Under the pieces are notes generated by a model that searched no databases, was not told the DNA's origin, and worked only from the letters and a program-made list of their open reading frames with translations. A stretch of 64,000 bases of DNA from Candidatus Bathyarchaeota archaeon (lineage in GTDB: Archaea > Thermoproteota > Bathyarchaeia > Bathyarchaeales > Bathycorpusculaceae): positions 992,001 through 1,056,000 of the forward strand of contig CAWEPZ010000011.1 in NCBI GenBank assembly GCA_963811105.1, written 5' to 3'. The position numbers and the translations under genes were made by a program. Numbering within the stretch: position 1 is the stretch's first letter; the number at the start of each line of letters is the position of its first letter. Positions 2,747 through 18,698 of this stretch are shown piece by piece.

Positions 2747-5326
2747 CTATGCTTTTTTCCGTATCGCCATCATTATTAAAGCGCCGATTATAATGACTAT
2801 TATTGCTATTGCGATAACGCCTGCAACTATTGTCAGTGTATAGTCCGGTACTGTTATTGCTGGTCCTGTTGAGGTTGTTGCTGTGGGTGTTGTTTCTGCG
2901 CCAACTGAAACAGCAGTTGCTGCTGATGAGCTGCCGTAGGAGTCGTCCCCTGCAAATGTGGCAATTATCCTGTATGTGCCTTCAGTAGGCGGCGTCCAAG
3001 GCATTTCAAAGGTGCCGTAGTATGCACTTGTAGTTACGGTGCCGATTGTGATGGCGTTGTTGTTAGAGTCTATAGCTGTGAGTACAATTGGCACACCAGT
3101 CATCGTAGCATTGTGGTCAACACCGTCGATTGGATGCTGCATATGCAGATATTCCATCTCAGTAGCCATCGAATCCTTAGAGACGCATGGTGTGTTAGGC
3201 TGAGCAGGAGACAAATCAAGCACTGTGCCCTTTATCAAAACGCCTGTTCCTCGCGCAACCACTGTATCGGGTGCTGTCACTGTTGTAGCGGTTTTTCCTC
3301 TGCCGAAGACATACATGTATCCGTCATAAGAGTTTCCTGCAGTCATGTAGCCATCCGCAGTCGCGCCTGGAGCCATGCTGCCAGTAATGTTCCATATGCC
3401 CTGGCCTGTGGTTATGTTGATCGCGTGTAGCTTGTAGCCTCTGTAAATAGGTTGGTTTGGACTGTGCTCAGTGTTATAGGTGTATAGGACTCCGTCTGCG
3501 ATGACAGAAGTTCCGGTAAACCATGCATAGGAATCAACACCTGTTGCATCATTTGCATACGGTTGTTCATACGGGTATTCTGGCACGTATTGATACAGCC
3601 AGGCTACTTTTCCGTTGGTCCAGTTGTAAGCAGCGACTCCATCGTATTGATTTGCAATTATCATTCCTCCGTAGGATTGTACACCGTAGCAGCCGAAGCT
3701 TCCCCATGGCCAACTTGTCAAATCGCTTACCCATAGCTGTTTTCCAGTGTGGAGGTCCCAGCAATACCAATGTCCATCATTTAAGCGCACAGCGAATTTG
3801 CCGTGATCTGCGACTGAGGTGCTTGCACTGAAGAAGCCCCCTTCCCCCGTCGTTGTATCGGTTGTGATGTTGAATAGTAGTTGTCCTGTCGTCATGCTTG
3901 CTGCCATTATGCCTTGACCATATGCCACAACAAAGCCTGAGCCAACTCCTCCTGTACCCGGAGTAGTTATCGCATATGTGTTAACAGCAATAGCTGATTC
4001 ATAGTCAACAGTGCCTAAACTGCTGAATGGCCATGTAACGTTGCCCAGAACTTGAGGCCGCAGGTTGGTAGCACCTCCGAATCCAACGTCTCCTGTTATA
4101 GTCCAGTTGATAAGTCTATATTGAGTGCCAATAGTCTGTACTGTAAAGAATACAGGCCAACCGTCGGGTGTTTGCGCGTAGAATGTGCCGCTCGTGAATG
4201 GAGAAATTGAGATGTTGGCGATTACTGTTCCAAGCCACGGGTCATACCATATCAGTCGACTACTTCCCACGTACATAAGTCTCACAGACAATCCTGAATC
4301 TTCGGCGCTAGCGCCCGCGACAGTCACAGAAGTCCTTGTAATATAATTAATCATTGTTGGCACCTGGGTGACATTTAATTGGTCCCAATAAACTTGCCCA
4401 GTTTGAAGGTCGTAGCATTCCCAAACAGATTGTGCGTGGCCGTCTATCATTTTAGTCATGGTTTGATAGCATCTTCCGTCATAAATTATCGATGGTGTTG
4501 CTCCCCTGCCCGACAAGGATGTCAGCCCCATTGTTCCACCAATTACACCAGCTATAGCGTCTTGCCGCATCCAAACTACGTGTGCAGTTTTAGGTCCTTG
4601 AACATAAGGAGTGAACAAATAGTTGCTCATGTAGGTGTTTGTGTCTGCTGGCCAGCTTGGGCCGCCTCCAACAATGCCTGTAGCAGGATAGTTGCCCAAT
4701 ATCGACCACCATTCCCTGTTTTCAGGTGACACCGGTCTTGTCCAGTAGTCCGTCGGAAGAGGTGAACCTGGCCAACTTTGAGCAAGCGTATTGGTTACAG
4801 TTATAGTATATGGTCCGTCACTGCTTGGTTTGTAGTATACTGAATTGGTAAAGGTCGTGTTGGTTCCAAACTGGAATGATGCTTCGGTCGTGTTGTAAAC
4901 TCCTGCAGGGAAGTAGGCACCGAGGAAGTCAAATTTGATTGTCCAATTGCCAAGCTGATCCGGTACGTAATTGAACCATGCTGATACATCTCCAGGATAG
5001 GAGTTCAGTGGACCGATAGTATCTTTGGTACCGTCTGGCTTTGTGAATGTCACTACGTAAGCATTTTTCATGTATCTGACGACGTGAACTGGAGGTTGAA
5101 GCCAAAGGTTAACAATTACATTTTGTCCAAGCCCAATGGCATGCGGGTTGAAACTCAAGTGAGCGATTGTCTGGAATGATTCATCTGGAGTAACGCCTGT
5201 TGGTAATGGTATTGATCCGTTATCCTGTAGTGGTAAGCTTTGAGCTTGAATAATAGATGGTGTTGTCAACGCAAATAAAGATATCAAGAAAATAGCAATT
5301 ATAGTTTTCTTTGCTTTTCCAAACAT
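2747..5326 (-). CDS. PQQ-like beta-propeller surface protein (paralogue 1), signal peptide plus C-terminal TM anchor
   Basis: Signal peptide, repeated D/N-x-x-TG-x-x-x-W motifs, conserved LPTDYWTRP and GTVLDLSPAQPNTPC blocks, and a C-terminal TM with basic tail. Confidence 0.8.
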   Translation of the reverse strand: MFGKAKKTIIAIFLISLFALTTPSIIQAQSLPLQDNGSIPLPTGVTPDESFQTIAHLSFNPHAIGLGQNVIVNLWLQPPVHVVRYMKNAYVVTFTKPDGTKDTIGPLNSYPGDVSAWFNYVPDQLGNWTIKFDFLGAYFPAGVYNTTEASFQFGTNTTFTNSVYYKPSSDGPYTITVTNTLAQSWPGSPLPTDYWTRPVSPENREWWSILGNYPATGIVGGGPSWPADTNTYMSNYLFTPYVQGPKTAHVVWMRQDAIAGVIGGTMGLTSLSGRGATPSIIYDGRCYQTMTKMIDGHAQSVWECYDLQTGQVYWDQLNVTQVPTMINYITRTSVTVAGASAEDSGLSVRLMYVGSSRLIWYDPWLGTVIANISISPFTSGTFYAQTPDGWPVFFTVQTIGTQYRLINWTITGDVGFGGATNLRPQVLGNVTWPFSSLGTVDYESAIAVNTYAITTPGTGGVGSGFVVAYGQGIMAASMTTGQLLFNITTDTTTGEGGFFSASTSVADHGKFAVRLNDGHWYCWDLHTGKQLWVSDLTSWPWGSFGCYGVQSYGGMIIANQYDGVAAYNWTNGKVAWLYQYVPEYPYEQPYANDATGVDSYAWFTGTSVIADGVLYTYNTEHSPNQPIYRGYKLHAINITTGQGIWNITGSMAPGATADGYMTAGNSYDGYMYVFGRGKTATTVTAPDTVVARGTGVLIKGTVLDLSPAQPNTPCVSKDSMATEMEYLHMQHPIDGVDHNATMTGVPIVLTAIDSNNNAITIGTVTTSAYYGTFEMPWTPPTEGTYRIIATFAGDDSYGSSSAATAVSVGAETTPTATTSTGPAITVPDYTLTIVAGVIAIAIIVIIIGALIMMAIRKKA

Positions 5327-8861: not shown

Positions 8862-10361
8862 ATGACCGCCAACAAAATTCTAGGAAAAACTTTAATAATT
8901 TATCAGTTTAAGACATTCAAGGTGGTTTCTTTTTCAGTGCGTAAAATGAGCAAAAAACAACCTAATCAACTTAATCCACTTGCATTTAAAAAACACCCCT
9001 CTGAGCAATTGGACCACCAAAAAATTGCCCAATTAATACTTTCTCCGTTCATCCACTTGTTCAACATTAATGAATCGACGAAGTGTCTTTTCAATTCTTT
9101 AACTCTAAAGAAAGTGTACTTAACCAATGATAATTACACTAAGCTTTTAATAGATCTAAGTATGGGAAAACGTAGTAGAGACGTCAAAAGTTTAATCGAC
9201 TTGAAGTTTATAGTGCCTCTAGGCTTTGATGCGGAAAAAGTGTTTGACAGCGTCGCAAACAGCTTGCTTAGAAAGAAACCTTCGACCAACCTTGCGTACA
9301 TTTTGGTAACTGACTTCTGCAACTTCAGATGCGGTTACTGCTTCATAGAAAACTCTCTAAAGGGTCCTAGCATAGCAATGTCCAAGGATTTGGCAGATAA
9401 AGTCATTAACGTTTTGATCAACGAAGCAAAGCAAGTCCCAGAATATAGAGTTACATTTTATGGAGGAGAACCCCTAAGCATCAGCGAAATAGTCTTCTAC
9501 ATCATCAAAAAACTTGAGCAAGCATCTAAGGACAAATTCAAATTTTCTTGCGTTACAAACGGAAGTCTAGTAACCGAAGATTTAGCTAGAAAACTTAAAC
9601 AACACAACGTTACCGTAGGATTATCGCTAGACGGATGGGCCAACATTGACAAAAACCGTGTTTTTACCAATGGAAAAGAAACCTTTTACTCAGCACTTAA
9701 AGCGTTAGCTCTCCTAAAAGAAGCCGAGGTAAATGTTGGAATATCATGCACAATTACAAAACAGAACTACAAATACGCAGAGGAAATAGTTGAATTTATC
9801 CAAAAATTGGGAATCAGAACCATTGGTTTTAATTTGTTAACTAGACTCCAAGAGCCAAGTGAATTTGAGGTGCCAGACCCAAAACAACTCGCGCACCACC
9901 TCTTTGAAGCGTACTTAAAAGCAAACGAATTGCAAATGTTTGAAGATCGCATAGGCAATAGACGAGCAAACTATTTTTTCAAAGAAATATTTCATTTGTA
10001 CGATTGCCCCGCGTTTGGTCAACTAATATTCTTTTCGCCAGCTGGAACAGTGGGACCTTGCCATGCGTTCTATCCTTCAGGAAAACATCAAATTCCAATC
10101 AAAGATAATCTGAAAGTCCAAGAAGAACCATTGTTTTACAAATGGCTGGAAATTGGCACACTAAAGAATAAAGATTGCATGAGGTGTCCGGCCCTTGGAA
10201 TCTGCGGCGGAGGCTGCGCTTACGATATTTACGTTAAGACCGGTCAGCTTGGCATTAAAGAAGACTACTTCTGCGCTTTCCAGAATGAAATACTCAAGCT
10301 CCTGCTATCTTACAATTTCCTGATAAAACCTCAAAATAAACTTGGAAAAACGAAAAGTTGA
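8862..10361 (+). CDS. Radical SAM/SPASM domain protein, probable peptide maturase
   Basis: CNFRCGYC (CxxxCxxC), FYGGEP, TNG and SLDG motifs, plus SPASM cysteines (CPA...GPC; CMRCPALGICGGGC...FC). An N-terminal extension of more than 100 aa could be an RRE-like domain. The start may be the ATG at 8946. Confidence 0.9.
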   Translation: MTANKILGKTLIIYQFKTFKVVSFSVRKMSKKQPNQLNPLAFKKHPSEQLDHQKIAQLILSPFIHLFNINESTKCLFNSLTLKKVYLTNDNYTKLLIDLSMGKRSRDVKSLIDLKFIVPLGFDAEKVFDSVANSLLRKKPSTNLAYILVTDFCNFRCGYCFIENSLKGPSIAMSKDLADKVINVLINEAKQVPEYRVTFYGGEPLSISEIVFYIIKKLEQASKDKFKFSCVTNGSLVTEDLARKLKQHNVTVGLSLDGWANIDKNRVFTNGKETFYSALKALALLKEAEVNVGISCTITKQNYKYAEEIVEFIQKLGIRTIGFNLLTRLQEPSEFEVPDPKQLAHHLFEAYLKANELQMFEDRIGNRRANYFFKEIFHLYDCPAFGQLIFFSPAGTVGPCHAFYPSGKHQIPIKDNLKVQEEPLFYKWLEIGTLKNKDCMRCPALGICGGGCAYDIYVKTGQLGIKEDYFCAFQNEILKLLLSYNFLIKPQNKLGKTKS

Positions 10362-10555: not shown

Positions 10556-11014
10556 TTGTCAAAAAATAAATCAAATCCTATAGCGCCCTCCAAAAACCCA
10601 TCTATCGCTCTATCAACAAAAAAATTGACCACAGCACAAAGCAAACGTTTACCAACAATCTTGGCACAAATACCACCTATCGAAAAACTGAATCCGGCCA
10701 TGTATGCAAAGCTGCAGTCAACTATACATGATACCGTAGCAAAAGCTTTGCCGGAATATCAGCAATGGATAAGCAAAACTATTGCATCGGATGGCCAGAC
10801 TCCGACTCCAGTGTGTAGCTCATGCGGAAACGACTGCCCAACACCACTTTGCAGTTCATGTGGAAACGATTGCCCCACACCTCTATGTAGCTCATGCGGA
10901 AACGACTGCCCAACACCATCAGCAACTAGAAAAATTGAAGACATGGTCAATGTGGCTGTCAACCAGGCAATGACCACGGCAATTCGTCAAGCTTTGGAAC
11001 AACAATTCAAATAA
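10556..11014 (+). CDS. Putative multi-core RiPP precursor (leader, 3x CSSCGNDCPTP, follower)
   Basis: All 9 Cys lie in three tandem 12-aa repeats, flanked by an 86-aa Cys-free leader and a ~30-aa helical follower. The gene sits between two radical SAM genes. Confidence 0.75.
   Translation: MSKNKSNPIAPSKNPSIALSTKKLTTAQSKRLPTILAQIPPIEKLNPAMYAKLQSTIHDTVAKALPEYQQWISKTIASDGQTPTPVCSSCGNDCPTPLCSSCGNDCPTPLCSSCGNDCPTPSATRKIEDMVNVAVNQAMTTAIRQALEQQFK
10814..10921 (+). repeat. Three tandem 36-bp units encoding CSSCGNDCPTP(L/S)
   Basis: Units at 10814-10849, 10850-10885 and 10886-10921. Unit 2 differs from unit 1 at 7 positions, all synonymous third positions. Confidence 0.95.
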
Positions 11015-11328: not shown

Positions 11329-12918
11329 ATGCCTGTATTTCTTTGCATCCCTCCAGTTTCTTCGTTGGTTCCTTATCCAGCAATTCCATACTTAACAAGT
11401 AGCCTGAAAGCAAATAATCAAAAGGTAAGTACCTTTGATCTAAACATAAACGCTTTTAATTTAACTCTTTTCCACCAAGGCGTTGATATTAAACCCGGGG
11501 AAATTTTACGTAAGAATAATCATGGAATAAAGGCGAAATGCGCAAGAGTTCCTGAGGCAAATCTTTACTCGACCATGCGAGAAAGCAAAGAAATTTTTGA
11601 ACAAATTATGTTCGAAGAGGCTTCTGATCAATTAAGTTATCCCTATTCGAGTCTACAGTCCAGATATATTATTAGCAAAGAATTAAAGCAGGCAATAATT
11701 TCGGATGTTTGGAAAATTTGTAATAATTGGTTTTTGGAAGTTGCCAATGATTCCAAAGAACAAAGTATTGTAGGATTTCATGTAATAAGTCAAACTGGAT
11801 TGATGTGGAGCATACTTCTTGCACGAAAATTAAAGAAAATTCTGCCCAAAATTTTGACAGTCTTGGGGGGTCCAGCATTCCTCGCATGGGAAGAAGTTCT
11901 CTCAGCCAATCCAGAAATTGACGTAATAGTTCGAGGGGAGGGTGAGGTCACAATTTCTGAGATAGCTAATTTGTATGACGGCAGTTTGGAATCAATAAAA
12001 GGAATCAAGGGAATTTATTACAGAAACGAGAAAGATAAAATTGAAACCAATGCGGATCGCCCATTAATAAAATCTCTTGACGCTTTGCCTTTTCCATATT
12101 ATGGTGATTTACCGTTAAAAGAATATCCTCAGAATAAGTTTGGAATGCCTATAATACCCGTTGTTGGTTCTAGAGGATGTATAGGAAATTGTGTTTTTTG
12201 CGTTGAAAAACGTTTATGGGGTAACACTTATCGGATGCGCTCACCAGAAAACATCGTTTCCGAGTTCAAAAACATTAAAGAAAAATATGGAACTTCTGTT
12301 ATTCGCTTCAATGACAGTTTGATAAATTGTAATATCAAATCTCTAGAAACATTCTGCAATTTATTGATTGAAGATAACATCAGAATGCAATGGATGGGTA
12401 ATGCTCGAATCCGACCTGAAATGACTGATAAATTGCTTGGGAAAATGGGCCAAGCAGGTTGCATAGGATTATGGTATGGCATAGAATCTGGGTCTCAAAG
12501 AATATTGCATAAAATGAAAAAAGGATATAATTTGGAAACCGCTAAAAATGTAATCCACGATACTGCTAGAAACGGCATTCGAGTTCTAATATTTATGATA
12601 GTAGATTTTCCAGGAGAAACACCAAACGATTTTAGACAGTCCGTTGATTTCTTAAAGCAGAATCAAGATTACATTGATCAAGTCAGCATTTCACGCTTTG
12701 GCGTCTTGCATGATTCAGAAATAGCTCTCAGCCCAAAAAAATATGGAATTGAAGTTATTAGAAGAAAAATGGGCGTTAATTACAGTTACATCTATTCACC
12801 TAGACCAGAGAGCAATCGATATGAAATCTTAGATTCAGCCTGGAAGCAATTAAGTATGCTAAAAAAAGCAAACCCAGCTAGAAATAATCGCGCAAAAATA
12901 ATCGTCCCATATTACTAA
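11329..12918 (+). CDS. Cobalamin (B12)-binding radical SAM protein (class B methyltransferase-like)
   Basis: B12-binding domain motifs (VLGGP, RGEGE), SRGCIGNCVFC (CxxxCxxC), RSPENIV.E, GIESGS and FPGET. Confidence 0.9.
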   Translation: MPVFLCIPPVSSLVPYPAIPYLTSSLKANNQKVSTFDLNINAFNLTLFHQGVDIKPGEILRKNNHGIKAKCARVPEANLYSTMRESKEIFEQIMFEEASDQLSYPYSSLQSRYIISKELKQAIISDVWKICNNWFLEVANDSKEQSIVGFHVISQTGLMWSILLARKLKKILPKILTVLGGPAFLAWEEVLSANPEIDVIVRGEGEVTISEIANLYDGSLESIKGIKGIYYRNEKDKIETNADRPLIKSLDALPFPYYGDLPLKEYPQNKFGMPIIPVVGSRGCIGNCVFCVEKRLWGNTYRMRSPENIVSEFKNIKEKYGTSVIRFNDSLINCNIKSLETFCNLLIEDNIRMQWMGNARIRPEMTDKLLGKMGQAGCIGLWYGIESGSQRILHKMKKGYNLETAKNVIHDTARNGIRVLIFMIVDFPGETPNDFRQSVDFLKQNQDYIDQVSISRFGVLHDSEIALSPKKYGIEVIRRKMGVNYSYIYSPRPESNRYEILDSAWKQLSMLKKANPARNNRAKIIVPYY

Positions 12919-13098
12919 ACGAAGTTTCTTGTAAAGAGAATTTCTCCTTTTGCTTTTTTGTCGCTAAAGATGGTGATAGTTAAGGCAAAACGTACAGGAG
13001 ATTTCTGTTAACCACGTTTTTCAAGAGTCTATTAACAATTTTGCAAATCCTCATAAACATAAATAGCGGTACTTCATAAAAATAGAGTGCGATTATTT

Positions 13099-13434
13099 TT
13101 GTCAAAAGATAAATCCGTAAACAAAGCCCTCTCTAAAAAGTCTACAAGAACTGTTCCTAAGAAAAAATCAGATTCAGCTGGTTCAAAAAAAAGATTAACC
13201 AAGAAACAAAATGAACGCCCACATACACTTTTTGAAAAAAATCAACATTTTGAAAAATTGGATCCCGAATCTTATGCGAAACTGCAATCAACAATACATG
13301 AAGTCGTTGAAAAAACGATGCCCGAATACAAAGAATGGCTAAATTCTGCATTTGGCGAAAAAATTATTCCCGATGATTGTTCCAATGCCCGCCCAACACT
13401 TATCCAAAGGTGCCGCGTCTGTCCAAAAAATTGA
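13099..13434 (+). CDS. Paralogue of the RiPP precursor leader, probably the N-terminal part of a frameshifted fusion with the downstream methyltransferase
   Basis: EKLDPESYAKLQSTIHEVVEKTMPEYKEW aligns with EKLNPAMYAKLQSTIHDTVAKALPEYQQW of the 10556 protein. The TTG at 13099 has the same context as the TTG at 10556. Confidence 0.7.
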   Translation: MSKDKSVNKALSKKSTRTVPKKKSDSAGSKKRLTKKQNERPHTLFEKNQHFEKLDPESYAKLQSTIHEVVEKTMPEYKEWLNSAFGEKIIPDDCSNARPTLIQRCRVCPKN

Positions 13435-14272
13435 CGATATTGTAGTTGCTGCTTTCAACAAAGCTATGAAAGCAGTACGTCAAGCTTCGGAAGAAACTGA
13501 GCAAACGGAAATTATGGAAAAATGGTTCAAAAAAAAATTTTTTGACGACGTTTCTGACATACGACCTGAAAGCAGAAACTATTACAAACATTGCGTACAC
13601 AATTTCGTTACTCAATTTTTCTCCAAAGAAAAAATAGCTGGAAAAAGAATCCTCGACTTCGGATGTGGACCAGGATACTATTCCACGATTTTGGCCCAAC
13701 GCGGAGCAGACGTAACTGGAATTGACAGAAGTGCATTTCTTATTTACAAAGCAAACGAACTCAAACAAAAACTAGGACTTAAGAATATAGAGTTTTTTCA
13801 AGAAGATTTTCTTGATTTTGAGACAAATGCAAGGCCCAAAGAGTTTGATTATATCATAGCGATAGACACAATTGTGAGTTTTGACTTTTCCAGACAGAAG
13901 CATAACCATGAGGATTTCACTAAGGCATTGAGCAAAATCAGCAGAATTCTGAAAGATCAAGGTAGATTTTTTATAATTGAGGCGCATCCTTTTTTCGGTC
14001 AATTTGCTAAAGGAATAAAATTCTCAAGCGAAGGACATTTTCATGGTCGTTTATCTCATTATAAAATAGAATATAAGCGTAAAGATAATCCTAATCATTG
14101 GTTTACCCTTGACGAAATGACGAAGGCTCTTAATGAGAACTGTTTGGCAATTTGCAGGATTTATGAGCCTGATCCAAGTGTTGAATTGGAAAAAGAAAAC
14201 GCCCAATTATTCAAGTTTTTCCTGAAGTATCCACACATGATTGTATATGAAATATGCAAAGTGAGAAACTAA
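13352..14272 (+). CDS. Class I SAM-dependent methyltransferase carrying the precursor-like follower at its N-terminus
   Basis: Motif I ILDFGCGPGY, VTGID, FDYI and LKDQGRF. The N-terminal KIDDIVVAAFNKAMKAVRQASE matches the precursor follower KIEDMVNVAVNQAMTTAIRQALE. Confidence 0.85.
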   Translation: MAKKLFPMIVPMPAQHLSKGAASVQKIDDIVVAAFNKAMKAVRQASEETEQTEIMEKWFKKKFFDDVSDIRPESRNYYKHCVHNFVTQFFSKEKIAGKRILDFGCGPGYYSTILAQRGADVTGIDRSAFLIYKANELKQKLGLKNIEFFQEDFLDFETNARPKEFDYIIAIDTIVSFDFSRQKHNHEDFTKALSKISRILKDQGRFFIIEAHPFFGQFAKGIKFSSEGHFHGRLSHYKIEYKRKDNPNHWFTLDEMTKALNENCLAICRIYEPDPSVELEKENAQLFKFFLKYPHMIVYEICKVRN

Positions 14273-14535: not shown

Positions 14536-15484
14536 TTAGACTATTTTATCAGCCGCCATTTTCATTTTTTCCAAAATGAATCTCACTTTTTCGAGTGATG
14601 TCATTCCAAAGCCGCAATCCGGATGGATATACCTGATATTTTCTCTTCCGGCAGATTTCCTCAATTCTGTTATATCGCTCCATAATTATTCTCTCATCTT
14701 CAACATTGACGTTTGAGATGAACCCTACTCCAAGTTTCTTACCGTGCTCTTCCAGTGATGTCTTTGAGATGATATCCAAATTCTCTTTTTCTTCTTCTCC
14801 GCTAAATCCTAAACTTAAGATTGGAATATCAGAATCTAATAAGACATCATATAGATTCGGAACACTTTTTATTGATCCACAGACGTGACAGCTAACTTTT
14901 TCCTCTTTAATCGAAAAAGGTGGAAGATGCAAAGTAAAATCTTCCAAGATCTTTTTAGCAGACTCAAGAGAAACTCGCCCAGTTGAAAGCAAAGGTTCGT
15001 CAATCTGCACGTAAGCTCCAATATTAAGCGCTTCCTGCACTAGAGGTAAAAGGGCACGAGAAAAATCAGAAAACAAAGATTCTTCTTCGTCTAAATTATA
15101 ATGCTTCATTGTACTTTCCATATCCGCTAAAGCACAAGTAGTACCTAACGTCATTGGACCTGTAATTGTAATTTTGACTTTCACACTCTCTTTTCCTAGG
15201 CTTTCCAGGATTGATTTGACTCTTCTATAATCGTTAATCTTGTAGAACTCATCTATCTTGTCTCGTTTTATGGGTTCAATTTTTCCCACAATCTTCAAGC
15301 CATCGTCGAGTCTTTCTAGACCTGGAATTTGCTCAAAGTACTGAATCATGTTTCTTCGCAGTTCACCATCAGTTATCAGATCGATGCCGTAGTATAATTG
15401 CAAATCAACGATTTCTCTAATCGCATTTTCAAGAGGACGATCTGATTTAGGAAAACTTCCGACAACAGTTGTTTCTATTGGCAT
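14536..15484 (-). CDS. MetE C-terminal-domain ('core') methionine synthase-like protein, frameshifted near the 3' end
   Basis: TTVVGSFP, ITDGELRR, ITGPMTL, VQIDEP and Zn-ligand HVC motifs. Shifting frame near 14650 restores AGRENIRYIHPDCGFG...KMAADKIV* ending at 14536. Confidence 0.8.
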
Positions 15485-16055
15485 GAAAATAGTTAAATAA
15501 ACATAAATATTTAAACCGCTTGTGAGCAACTGTTCAGAACTGCTTCAACGTACAGTTTCAAGCTAAATTACACCTTTTGCTCCGTAAGTAGCTCCTGAAC
15601 TTGGCGCTCAATTTGGCATCTGATTTCTCGAACTTGTCTATGGGTTTCCTTTTGGGTCTTCAAGCTTCCATTCGATTGTTGGCCTGAAGAGCATTTTTGA
15701 CCCTCAATTCAAAACCGGCTGCCTAATTGATTATTGCTATCTGAACCTTTTTGACACATGATTGAATTTGTCGCTGACTTCAAAAAACCGGAAATAAAGA
15801 AAAGATCGGGCTTTGTTTTCGATAGATATTGGAAAGTAAGGAACGGGTGTTTGCAAGATTAGAAAAACACATAGCACATCTATCCTAAGATTTCGTTGGC
15901 ACTTATTGATTCCGTTGTCAAAGGCAAAATTATGCAAAGGTAGAAAGAAAGTTGCAGCTATCTATTTCTTAAAGAATACTTGAAAACCTAAGCCTTTTGC
16001 TAAAATTATCTTTGAACAAGAAAAAGAGGGAGATGTAATTTTATTGTTTGGGTGG

Positions 16056-18698
16056 TTATCGTTTTCTGAGTATCAGAATGGCTGTTGCGACTGAGAGGAT
16101 AACTACGATTATTATTGCGATTACTCCGGCGACTATGGTCATTGTGTAGTCTGGTGTTACGGATTGTGAAGCTGCTTGAGAAGGTGCCAATGTTGCTGCT
16201 GGACTAACTGCTATTGCTGTTGCTGCTCCTGAACTGCCATATGAGTCGTCTCCTGCAAATGAGGCAACAATTTTGTATGTGCCTTCTGTTGGTGGGGTCC
16301 AAGCCATCTCAAATGTGCCGTAGTATGCGCTTGAAGTTACTGTTCCGATGTTGATGACTTTGCCAGATGAGTCTATAGCTGTTAGTGTTACTGGTATGCC
16401 AGTCATGGTAACGTTGTGGTACATTCCATCTATTGGAATTTGCATGTGTAGGTATTCCATTTGAGTCGACATTGAGTCTGCGGAAACGCATGGCGTACCT
16501 GGTTGGGCTGGTGATTGATCCATAACTGTTCCTCGTATTAGCACTTGGGTTCCCAATGGTGTAGCGGTGTCGGGTGCCGTCACTGTGGTTTGTGTTAAGC
16601 CTTTGCCAAAGACGTCTAGGTAGCCGTCGTATTCATCGAGGAATGCGAGGTAGCCGTCTGATATTGCGCCTTCGAAGTAGCGTGAGCCTGGTACTCCTTG
16701 ACCCATGGTTATATTCCATATGCCTGCGCCTGTGGTAGCGTTAATGCAGAAGAGTCTCCAGCCTCTTGTAATTGGCTCGCTTGGCGTATGTTCACAGTTG
16801 AAGGTGAAGAGTTTTCCATCAGCCACGTAGCCTGAGCTGTGCCAGGAATAGTTTCCGCCATATGGTGTTTCAAATGGAGGTGCGGGTGCTGTGAAGGTCC
16901 AATCGATCTTGCCTGTGATCCAGTTGATCGCGTGGACTCCTGCGTAGTCATTGTCGAATATGTATCCGTAAGCTGATTGCACATCGTAAGCTCCGAAGAC
17001 TCCCCATGGCCATTCTGACAGCGGGCTCGTCCAAACCAGGTTCCCAGTCTTTAAGTCCCAGCAATCCCAGTCGCCGCCTAACAAGCGGACAGCTGCTTTG
17101 CCGTGATCGACAACCATTGGGGTTCCAAAGGTTTGTCCCCAGCCTGAACTAGTGTCTGTGGTTTTGTTCCAGAGGAGTTGTCCAGTGTATATGTTTGCTG
17201 CTTGTATGAATATGCCAACGTTTACTCCTAAGCCGGCTGAACTGATTGCGCCTGTGGTGACAGCGATTCCTGATTCATAATCAACTGTTCCCAGACTGCT
17301 AAATGGCCAAGAAATGTTGCCCCATATTCTTGCGGTGAAATTGTCAACAACTGTTTGCGCGCCTCCGCCGTGAACTTGCTCAGAGCCTGCGTTATTTGCT
17401 ATGGTCCAGTTGATTAAACGGTAGGTGACAGATGATCCTGAGCCGATTGTTTGTATGCTCAAGACCCATGGGTCTGCGTAGAATGTGCCGGTAGATACTC
17501 CGGAGGGGACTCCTGTGAAGTTTGAAACAACTGTGCCAGTTAAGGGGTCGTACTTGATTACTCGACCTGAATTTGAGCCTGACGCTCCAGTTATCGCTAC
17601 AAAGTATACTGATTCGCCTACTCTTGCTTCTGCGCCTGGAACTTCTGCGCCGCCTCGCTCATAGGTGATTATGGTGGGTATTGTTTCTCCAGTGGCTACT
17701 GGGCGTTCCCAGTATATCTTGCCTGTTTGCAGATCATAGCATCTCCATTCGTTGACTGCGCTAACTGTAGTAGGGTATTGCCATGTGCCGTTGATGTATA
17801 CTGGTTGTGTGGGTTCGCTTATGACTTCATAGCATCTTCCTGAGTAGATGATGGTTGGGTATCCACTTCCCGTTAATCCTCCGGCTGTCCAAGAGAGTTG
17901 TCCTGCTGGTCCACCGATGAGTCCGGCGATGAATGTTGGTCTTTGCCAGACTATGTGTGCTGTGTTTGGTGCTTGGACGTAGGGTGTGAATCTGTAGTTG
18001 CTCATGTATTTGTTGGTGTTTGCTGGCCAGTAGGTGCTTCCTCCAACAACGCCTGTTGGAGGCCAATTGCCTAATATTGGCCACCATTCTCTGTTGAAGG
18101 ATTCAGCTGGTCGTGACCAGTAATCTGTTGGTAATGCTGCTGGAGGCCAAGATGCTACCGCGTTTTGTTGCACTGTTACTGATACTTGAGGTGTTGTTGC
18201 TGGTTTGTAGTAGGCTGAGTCTAGAAATGCAGAACCGGATGTTCCGTTTTCGACGACACTTCCTTGGAGGTAGTATCCTGCGGGGTAGTATTGACCTAGG
18301 AAGTTAAATTGGAATTTGTAGGTACCGGCTGTGTCTGGGGTGTAGGGGAACCATGCTGTTGAGTCGCCTGCGTAGGATGATATTGGGCCTACAGTGGTGG
18401 TTGTTCCATCTGGTTTAGTGATTGTGACTGTGAATGCGTTTACTAAGTCTCTGTTTATGTTGATTGGAGGTTGAAGCCAGATGTTTACAAGTAACTCTTG
18501 CCCAACTCCGATTGGGTTTGGAGTGACATCAAGATAAGCAGTAGGAGTCACAGTAATGCTTGCAGTTACTCCGGCTGGTAAAGGTCCTGCTACTGGTTGG
18601 CTTAATGCTTTTACTGTCATTTTTGTCGTGGTTGCTATTACAGAAGCCATCAAAATGATTATGATAATTGCAGTTATCTTTTCACGATTTATTTTCAT
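16056..18698 (-). CDS. PQQ-like beta-propeller surface protein (paralogue 2)
   Basis: Same architecture and conserved blocks as 2747-5326 (LPTDYWSRP, NREWW, GTVMDQSPAQPGTPC, MEYLHMQ, C-terminal TM). Confidence 0.8.
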   Translation of the reverse strand: MKINREKITAIIIIILMASVIATTTKMTVKALSQPVAGPLPAGVTASITVTPTAYLDVTPNPIGVGQELLVNIWLQPPININRDLVNAFTVTITKPDGTTTTVGPISSYAGDSTAWFPYTPDTAGTYKFQFNFLGQYYPAGYYLQGSVVENGTSGSAFLDSAYYKPATTPQVSVTVQQNAVASWPPAALPTDYWSRPAESFNREWWPILGNWPPTGVVGGSTYWPANTNKYMSNYRFTPYVQAPNTAHIVWQRPTFIAGLIGGPAGQLSWTAGGLTGSGYPTIIYSGRCYEVISEPTQPVYINGTWQYPTTVSAVNEWRCYDLQTGKIYWERPVATGETIPTIITYERGGAEVPGAEARVGESVYFVAITGASGSNSGRVIKYDPLTGTVVSNFTGVPSGVSTGTFYADPWVLSIQTIGSGSSVTYRLINWTIANNAGSEQVHGGGAQTVVDNFTARIWGNISWPFSSLGTVDYESGIAVTTGAISSAGLGVNVGIFIQAANIYTGQLLWNKTTDTSSGWGQTFGTPMVVDHGKAAVRLLGGDWDCWDLKTGNLVWTSPLSEWPWGVFGAYDVQSAYGYIFDNDYAGVHAINWITGKIDWTFTAPAPPFETPYGGNYSWHSSGYVADGKLFTFNCEHTPSEPITRGWRLFCINATTGAGIWNITMGQGVPGSRYFEGAISDGYLAFLDEYDGYLDVFGKGLTQTTVTAPDTATPLGTQVLIRGTVMDQSPAQPGTPCVSADSMSTQMEYLHMQIPIDGMYHNVTMTGIPVTLTAIDSSGKVINIGTVTSSAYYGTFEMAWTPPTEGTYKIVASFAGDDSYGSSGAATAIAVSPAATLAPSQAASQSVTPDYTMTIVAGVIAIIIVVILSVATAILILRKR

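Follow-up and report, generated by a model that had tools for sequence, protein, structure and literature searches.

The stretch 13099-14272 of the window, the 64,000-nucleotide segment under analysis from the genome of a Candidatus Bathyarchaeota soil archaeon, is one gene lying in two frames, and it probably represents a single-base-broken copy of a conserved fused gene, named PLD-MT. The encoded protein would join a precursor-like domain (PLD), resembling the precursor of a ribosomally synthesized peptide with post-translational modifications (RiPP) from the same gene cluster, to a class I S-adenosylmethionine (SAM)-dependent methyltransferase. Frame 1 accounts for 13099-13404 and frame 2 for 13406-14269; read on its own, frame 1 extends from the TTG at 13099 to the TGA at 13432-13434, with the open reading frame (ORF) listing beginning at the GTG at 13087. 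The parts of the gene are as follows.

13099..13248, + strand: basic N-terminal tail of the PLD in frame 1, with a TTG start as in the orthologues, holding a 48-nt in-frame insert typical of the long type of the protein.
13249..13368, + strand: conserved leader-like helix of the PLD in frame 1, with a motif common to the leader of the free precursor (BLASTP, alignment).
13369..13423, + strand: core remnant, a single decayed core unit with the frame break inside it, the most variable part of the protein.
13404..13405, + strand: CC where relatives have a single C or T, the surplus base at which frame 1 passes into frame 2 (contigs X2 and X3, G132, P0038).
13424..13513, + strand: follower-like helix in frame 2, with no stop before the enzyme (BLASTP, DNA alignment).
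13514..14272, + strand: class I SAM-dependent methyltransferase domain (Pfam Methyltransf_31, E 1.2e-23).

The initial annotation, made from the DNA letters and their ORFs, had proposed that the ORF at 13099 matches the precursor leader, carries a degenerate single core and is continued in the +1 frame by the precursor follower, which runs without a stop into the methyltransferase. Comparison with the free precursor bears out each of these points. The leader matches in BLASTP with 39 of 100 identities (39%, E 5e-20) and in DNA at 119 of 181 positions, and the follower in the +1 frame matches with 13 of 28 identities (E 1e-4) and at 52 of 73 DNA positions, the frame that holds the methyltransferase being open from 13352 to 14272. 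The single core after the leader has one Cys against three in a true unit, with the DNA for its N-A-R-P-T matching the N-D-C-P-T stretch of the true core at 13 of 16 bases. Removal of one base, expected to give a single protein of ~390 aa, yields 390 aa, in line with the 389-392 aa of intact long-type relatives. The existing annotation of the window copy is a 299-aa protein from an internal start (P0047), and databases label the PLD-MT family only as 'SAM-dependent methyltransferase'.

A search of 120 same-genus (Ca. Bathyarchaeota) genomes recovered the PLD-MT gene in 20 of them, in 24 copies. Seventeen copies, distributed over 14 of the 20 carrier genomes, are single open frames of 364-410 aa that begin at the TTG equivalent to 13099, with no stop between follower and enzyme, as in frame 2 of the window. 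In the protein collection, 42 of 91 matches cover at least 96% of a 374-aa fused query. The look for intact fused homologues in related metagenome-assembled genomes (MAGs) was thus positive, and the proposal that the enzyme carries its own precursor-like module stands on these 17 copies and 42 full-length fused proteins. A stand-alone enzyme in the same lineage with a stop after the follower, the arrangement expected of a chance read-through, is absent from the copies found in this genus. Only homologues at a distance (45-62% identity) are stand-alone enzymes, and these lack a follower and differ at the N-terminus; their N-terminal extension of about 30-70 aa is unlike the PLD and sits in the same place, and the shortest of them, P0057, begins at the Met equivalent to 13514. 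Judged by these comparisons of sequence, the fusion is real and conserved. One distant homologue from a metagenome, P0066 (412 aa), has the SPASM C-terminal part of a radical SAM enzyme joined to the methyltransferase, and may be either a true fusion or a gene call spanning two genes.

Two subtypes of PLD-MT were distinguished, a short type of about 367 aa, which is the commonest, and a long type of 384-402 aa, to which the window copy belongs. The long type exceeds the short type by an insert of 16 codons in the basic tail and by 9 codons in the core remnant. The cluster order is kept, with a radical SAM/SPASM maturase (rSAM/SPASM), the precursor, a B12-binding radical SAM enzyme (B12-rSAM) and PLD-MT following one another. 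All 24 PLD-MT loci have at least one free precursor and an rSAM/SPASM gene, and therefore the fusion never replaces the precursor; at the genome level, 20 of 20 PLD-MT genomes fall among the 22 with a precursor match. B12-rSAM is absent from two loci, L067 (G001) and L071 (G132), where PLD-MT directly follows the precursor. G132 is otherwise the closest relative of the window here, with ClpB 93-96% identical. Eight of the 24 loci (L058, L060, L062, L064, L065, L072, L073 and L075) carry a second free precursor between B12-rSAM and PLD-MT, from which an ancestral cluster would have had three precursor-derived genes.

The origin of the fused domain was examined in a tree built from 42 PLDs together with 23 free precursors and 7 representatives from databases. 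The PLDs form one clade with P0100 (support 100/98), apart from the 23 free precursors (99/88). Since all 42 fused N-terminal domains fall in one clade, the tree shows, at the level of sequence relationships, that the fusion had a single origin in a precursor paralogue. The weakly supported sister of the PLD clade (81/32) is P0094, a free precursor whose leader is PLD-like and whose cores are real. P0100, a 130-aa PLD-type protein seeming to end after the follower, nests inside the long-type fused clade and was therefore taken as a truncated call, and a scan of metagenome contigs for its relatives found none. By these sequence comparisons, a paralogue of the precursor gene, composed of leader, Cys-rich core repeats and helical follower, lost its stop codon and turned into the N-terminal domain of the class I SAM methyltransferase of the cluster. 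Its core then decayed to at most one unit with loss of cysteines, and the central leader helix remained under purifying selection.

The two protein groups differ accordingly in their cores and agree in their leaders. The Cys positions, including C108, C111 and C115, are invariant in the 23 aligned free precursors, whereas the fused proteins hold 0-2 Cys and at most one core unit, in place of the two or more Cys repeats that characterise the free precursor family. The leader helix motif of that family is present in the PLD, a search with the precursor profile recovers the fused protein P0021 (E 1.7e-12), and the start region, including the TTG start, is common to PLD-MT and precursor genes. Across both subtypes the leader helix keeps the residues that it has in common with the true leader. 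Pooled Nei-Gojobori ratios of nonsynonymous to synonymous substitution (dN/dS), calculated for 15 intact copies out of 17 (a motif filter missed L059 and L070), were 0.195 for the 40 codons of the leader helix, 0.142 for the methyltransferase, 0.34 for the core remnant, 0.45 for the basic tail and 0.52 for the follower, with the caveat that the pooled pairs are not independent. Together with the alignments, these values show a leader helix under purifying selection within a conserved copy of the precursor scaffold that is apparently no longer a substrate.

The position of the surplus base was derived from alignments with relatives. Against five short-type orthologues, the window has a surplus of 28 nt at the core, equal to 27 + 1. 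Two contigs from public metagenome runs of different studies, X2 and X3, locate the extra base: record 18 of X2 covers 13405-13739 with 8 differences and 0 gaps, its preceding 19 letters aligning one base short, and record 29 of X3 covers 13415-13722 with 14 differences and 0 gaps, being likewise one base short at the junction. Both contigs keep the A6 run, and the junction is in frame when read through. The protein P0038, 88% identical over the enzyme part and having in common with the window some substitutions that are rare elsewhere, reads straight through the junction: its alignment follows frame 1 until residues 48-50 and frame 2 onward from residue 48. G132, a close but error-laden relative, likewise has only one C there. 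The extra base had been placed between about 13398 and the A6 run at 13425-13430; it does lie inside that interval, as one of the two Cs at 13404-13405, and not at the A6 run itself. The frame-1 tail beyond it, with its end CPKN, is consequently out-of-frame sequence. The C-x-x-C in that tail was considered as a second core unit and rejected, as the relatives show frame 2 to be the conserved frame.

The cause of the break was weighed between error and mutation, with assembly error accounting for the surplus C at somewhat better than even probability. A real mutation of this strain, making the gene a young pseudogene or a secondarily split gene, is a serious prospect of less than even weight; the strain would then make a 111-aa leader-only peptide with a junk tail and, at that same weight, either no enzyme or a PLD-less one from the ATG at 13373 or 13514, the latter start keeping the complete catalytic domain. 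Gene loss does occur, as 7 of the 24 genus copies are broken, some of these (G121, G114, second copy of G001) with many lesions, and the other window genes compared (ClpB, rSAM, precursor, B12-rSAM, MetE-like and PQQ-like) are all intact, giving no hint of a noisy assembly. The methyltransferase part nevertheless gives no sign of relaxed constraint: of its private changes, 1 falls at an otherwise invariant column (median 1) and 6 fall where conservation is 90% or higher, a mid-range number. The near relatives seen all have one base at the 13404/13405 site. Indel errors occur in assemblies of this kind, given that those of relatives are frame-broken even in ClpB (G132). In G132 the ClpB gene is in three pieces, and other relatives have a split rSAM or B12-rSAM (L071, L057, L063, L055, L060 and L068 affected); such frame breaks in conserved genes point to indel noise in MAG assemblies or to decaying clusters. 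Weighing against random error, three long-type copies, in G000 (the genome of the window), G106 and G132, are each broken within about 40 nt of the core remnant, at three different positions, which is more than expected from chance. Short- and long-type variants co-occur in single metagenomes, and strain-level length polymorphism at the core site misleading consensus calling may be offered as a guess. No independent copy of the break turned up in a pattern scan of metagenome contigs that allowed either one base or two at this site.

The clustering of breaks in these same 40 nt would also fit a programmed +1 frameshift or transcriptional slippage at the A-rich 13425-13434, giving a short peptide and a fusion protein, as the initial annotation had raised, and frame 1 there reads A-AAA-AAT followed by TGA, with a slippery look. 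This explanation is nonetheless scarcely credible. By homology the frame changes about 20 nt upstream of the A run, a similar in-frame A run is present in the free precursor and in intact relatives, 17 of the 24 copies need no shift, and each of the three breaks has a position of its own; neither the shift site nor the two-frame arrangement is conserved in relatives. The neighbours are broken about as often, with frequencies of 7/24 for PLD-MT, 6/24 for rSAM and 6/22 for B12-rSAM, the rSAM count being a corrected one that omits stops upstream of the likely true start and locus L069, where the second piece spans the whole protein.

The enzyme itself was assigned by profile and structure. Methyltransf_31 scored 83.9 bits against a cut-off of 27, with Methyltransf_25, _23, _11 and _12 also above their cut-offs. 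The glycine-rich SAM loop, D-F-G-C-G-P-G, is invariant, and the Rossmann-like core was modelled with a predicted local distance difference test score (pLDDT) of 80-95, as befits class I. Foldseek matches include MitM, TleD, RebM, CypM and LahSB, with E values of about 1e-12 to 1e-10, so that the modelled enzyme resembles generic natural-product class I methyltransferases, among them, more distantly, CypM and LahSB from RiPP pathways. For a long-type member, AlphaFold2 with a 42-row alignment predicts a disordered tail (1-55), a helix (56-84, pLDDT about 55-62), a loop and a second helix (110-133) ahead of the Rossmann core. A Pfam search of the intact PLD returned only sub-threshold helical-bundle noise.

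The PLD is proposed to be a leader mimic that tethers the enzyme and is no longer a substrate, a reading suggested by the alignments and held at close to even probability. It is predicted to present the same recognition helix as the true precursor, which would tether the methyltransferase to the partner of that helix. Candidate partners are the precursor itself, via helix-helix pairing, or the radical SAM maturation enzymes, and tailoring methylation would then take place on cross-linked cores within the maturation complex. A more specific version, substrate-mimic docking, is held only tentatively: the substrate would be recognised not via a RiPP recognition element (RRE) or an active-site motif but via a dead copy of its own helical scaffold, and that copy, no less tentatively, would either pair with the true precursor or replace the leader on the maturation enzymes.

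Binding of the PLD to the precursor was examined by co-folding. An intact fusion (residues 40-391) and the free precursor of its own genome (residues 30-147), with alignments made for this analysis, scored 0.43 (runs 0.43, 0.43 and 0.52), against 0.00 for the best of three controls; the runs agree in at least 35% of contacts, with a partner pLDDT of at least 55, the verdict is weak support, and no interface was returned. The pass mark used is reached by 58 of 80 solved complexes and by 2 of 110 mismatched pairs, with passing scores at 0.60 or under coming from only 7 of those 80 and from both mismatches. Several results weigh against the tethering proposal. In the AlphaFold2 model, which has a mean pLDDT of 59.9, the PLD helices reach only 50-62 with no confident packing. 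The co-fold partner is a paralogue of the N-terminal domain, and likeness alone may have brought the helices together. Because no interface was obtained and the partner is paralogous to that domain, the co-fold is a hint only. Free precursors have an invariant motif upstream in the leader (T35, Q38, R41, L42, L46 and P50, alignment A3) that is missing from the PLD, and for this reason the PLD may not bind every partner of the true leader. On the side of the maturase, neither Pfam nor the alignment to the structure 5wgg, which begins at residue 131, shows an RRE in the rSAM N-terminus.

Other roles for the domain were considered against the same evidence. The fused helix could sit permanently in the leader site of its own enzyme, making it constitutively active so that cores are methylated regardless of their own leader, a natural parallel to leader-enzyme fusions made by engineering. 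This is unlikely, though not without attraction: within the PLD, conservation is highest in the leader helix, the stand-alone homologues carry their different extension at the place of the PLD, and in the available text of PMC10604976 ThurKC, LctM and YcaO heterocyclases with an engineered fused leader are constitutively active on leaderless cores. The model, however, does not pack the PLD helices confidently on the enzyme, nothing shows leader dependence for this methyltransferase family, and the weak co-fold pass with the free precursor fits this arrangement and docking alike. A functionless relic, an accident of stop-codon loss kept as a spacer or for its 5' start signals, is rather improbable. 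It would explain the fast evolution of the follower and N-terminal tail, the missing packing and the start region held in common with the precursor genes; it is opposed by the leader helix, with a dN/dS near that of the enzyme and with residues of the true leader kept in both subtypes.

A self-modifying architecture like that of borosins, which the initial annotation had entertained, is a very doubtful alternative in which the enzyme would methylate its own core remnant, or the PLD would be processed to a peptide product. RiPP precursors typically have variable cores beside conserved leaders, and this pattern is found here; in some long-type proteins (P0032, P0039 and P0041) the core unit is almost whole, with two Cys and a P-T-P end. 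The core remnant is, however, less conserved than any other part; most members have 0-1 Cys in it, the commonest type has it shortened by 9 further codons, and free precursors with invariant Cys always stand beside the fusion. The borosin methyltransferase fold differs from class I, and the borosin core is C-terminal, whereas PLD-MT has a class I Rossmann fold with an N-terminal peptide. After these comparisons, the leader-mimic tether is retained as the proposed role of the PLD.

The RiPP-type cluster of the window consists of four + strand genes, the last being the 13099-14272 stretch and the first three being the following.

8862..10361, + strand: radical SAM/SPASM peptide maturase, the first cluster gene (Pfam Radical_SAM, E 3e-21).
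10556..11014, + strand: true precursor of 152 aa with a TTG start, composed of a long leader, three Cys-rich core repeats of 12 residues each and a helical follower (free-precursor alignment).
11329..12918, + strand: B12-binding radical SAM enzyme, likely a C-methyltransferase (Pfam B12-binding and Radical_SAM).

Translation of rSAM/SPASM probably begins at the ATG at 8946, which encodes residue 29 in the ORF listing, because the aligned frame of 13 out of 23 related loci has a stop at or beside query position 28, immediately upstream of this Met. Its best NCBIfam matches are the FibroRumin (179.6 bits, cut-off 400), PapB (149.8 bits, cut-off 340) and Cys-every-fifth maturases, all under the curated cut-offs, and the nearest solved structure is 5wgg (E 3.9e-22), presumably CteB. 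By these profile and structure matches, the maturase appears related to characterised thioether-forming enzymes, a kinship looked for in a ranthipeptide- or SCIFF-like cluster, yet it stays under every equivalog cut-off. B12-rSAM matches the NCBIfam subfamily of RiPP maturation rSAM C-methyltransferases at E 4.5e-43, also under its cut-off.

Neither the precursor nor the frame-1 ORF matched any Pfam or NCBIfam family, and an ESM Atlas search with the precursor gave no usable match. A precursor-profile search of 1.84 billion proteins returned only 17 representative clusters, with a single fusion among them, PLD-MT, indicating a narrow scaffold family carried by no other enzyme. The genome of the window holds an orphan second precursor paralogue on another contig (G000:C10:53253-53723, - strand, equal to L076 9733-10230). 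It has 165 aa at 50% identity, contains four core repeats and extends further beyond the follower. It adjoins a 192-aa fragment of a PQQ-like surface protein, and a look at about 10 kb around it showed neither an rSAM nor a methyltransferase gene. Extra precursor paralogues are present at further loci in other genomes too.

The cluster is flanked by two paralogues, 50% identical and about 860-880 aa long, at window positions 2747-5326 (- strand) and 16056-18698 (- strand), each combining a PQQ/beta-propeller part and Ig-like repeats with a signal-like N-terminus and, at the C-terminus, a membrane anchor. Directly downstream of the cluster lies a MetE-like gene (14549-15529, - strand) with a cobalamin-independent methionine synthase catalytic domain (E 4.5e-12); it is probably not a cluster member, since among the compared loci it was found only in G132.

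Among known systems, borosins resemble PLD-MT in having a SAM-dependent methyltransferase and a RiPP precursor element in one polypeptide. The available text of two sources describes many architectures and peptide fusions in the borosin family (10.1101/2021.12.24.474128; 10.1101/2024.01.09.574750). PLD-MT differs from them in its decayed, Cys-poor core at the N-terminal side of a class I enzyme and in the separate true precursor that is always present; Pfam and fold searches with PLD-MT returned class I families only and no borosin-type fold. Engineered leader-enzyme fusions (ThurKC, LctM and cyanobactin YcaO) likewise place a leader covalently on a RiPP enzyme, according to the accessible portion of PMC10604976. 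They are laboratory constructs, whereas PLD-MT is a natural gene, intact in 14 genomes, with follower and core remnant retained.

A further comparison is offered by CrpA/CrpB/CrpC of Methanococcus voltae, where, in the available text of PMC13692751, an rSAM/SPASM enzyme forms ranthionine cross-links on Cys-rich proteins. Both systems pair an rSAM/SPASM enzyme from an archaeon with long Cys-rich substrates that bear repeats; the same text reports a 47-residue N-terminal leader-like region common to two proteins of that cluster and proposes domain-domain contacts beyond RRE-leader binding. In contrast to PLD-MT, no methyltransferase fusion is described in that part of the source, and the repeats and leaders are unrelated in sequence, with no family-level match. 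A peptidase-LanM fusion (PMC5141572) was considered as a precedent and set aside as not relevant. A literature search, with most subscription journals and supplements outside its coverage, returned no description of the fusion, the precursor family or Bathyarchaeota RiPPs.

The closest parallel in gene content comes from a Bacillota MAG (L081, 7899-10796), in which an enzyme 53-54% identical stands beside a Cys-repeat precursor and an rSAM/SPASM maturase. The precursor has 162 aa, with about nine eight-residue Cys repeats between leader and helical follower, and by sequence the arrangement looks like a bacterial counterpart of the archaeal cluster. The Bacillota enzyme differs in having a short unrelated N-terminal extension and no precursor-like domain. 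Its position beside a Cys-repeat precursor and maturase suggests that the enzyme family is RiPP-associated more widely, with the PLD as an addition peculiar to the archaeal genus.

A central question of RiPP biosynthesis and engineering concerns the way in which tailoring enzymes locate their peptide substrates, and chemists fuse leaders to enzymes to remove leader dependence. A natural, conserved class I methyltransferase fused to a leader-follower scaffold would show evolution using the same trick, or a docking variant of it, and the PLD would offer a portable recognition module. The free precursor P0094, the long-type fusion with one core unit and the short-type fusion with the core almost gone form a clear evolutionary series from substrate gene to enzyme domain. 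The finding points to an uncharacterised Cys-repeat RiPP cluster in Bathyarchaeota, and if the docking proposal is true, an enzyme family there would have gained recognition of its substrate by swallowing a precursor gene, providing a natural counterpart of the engineered leader-fused enzymes.

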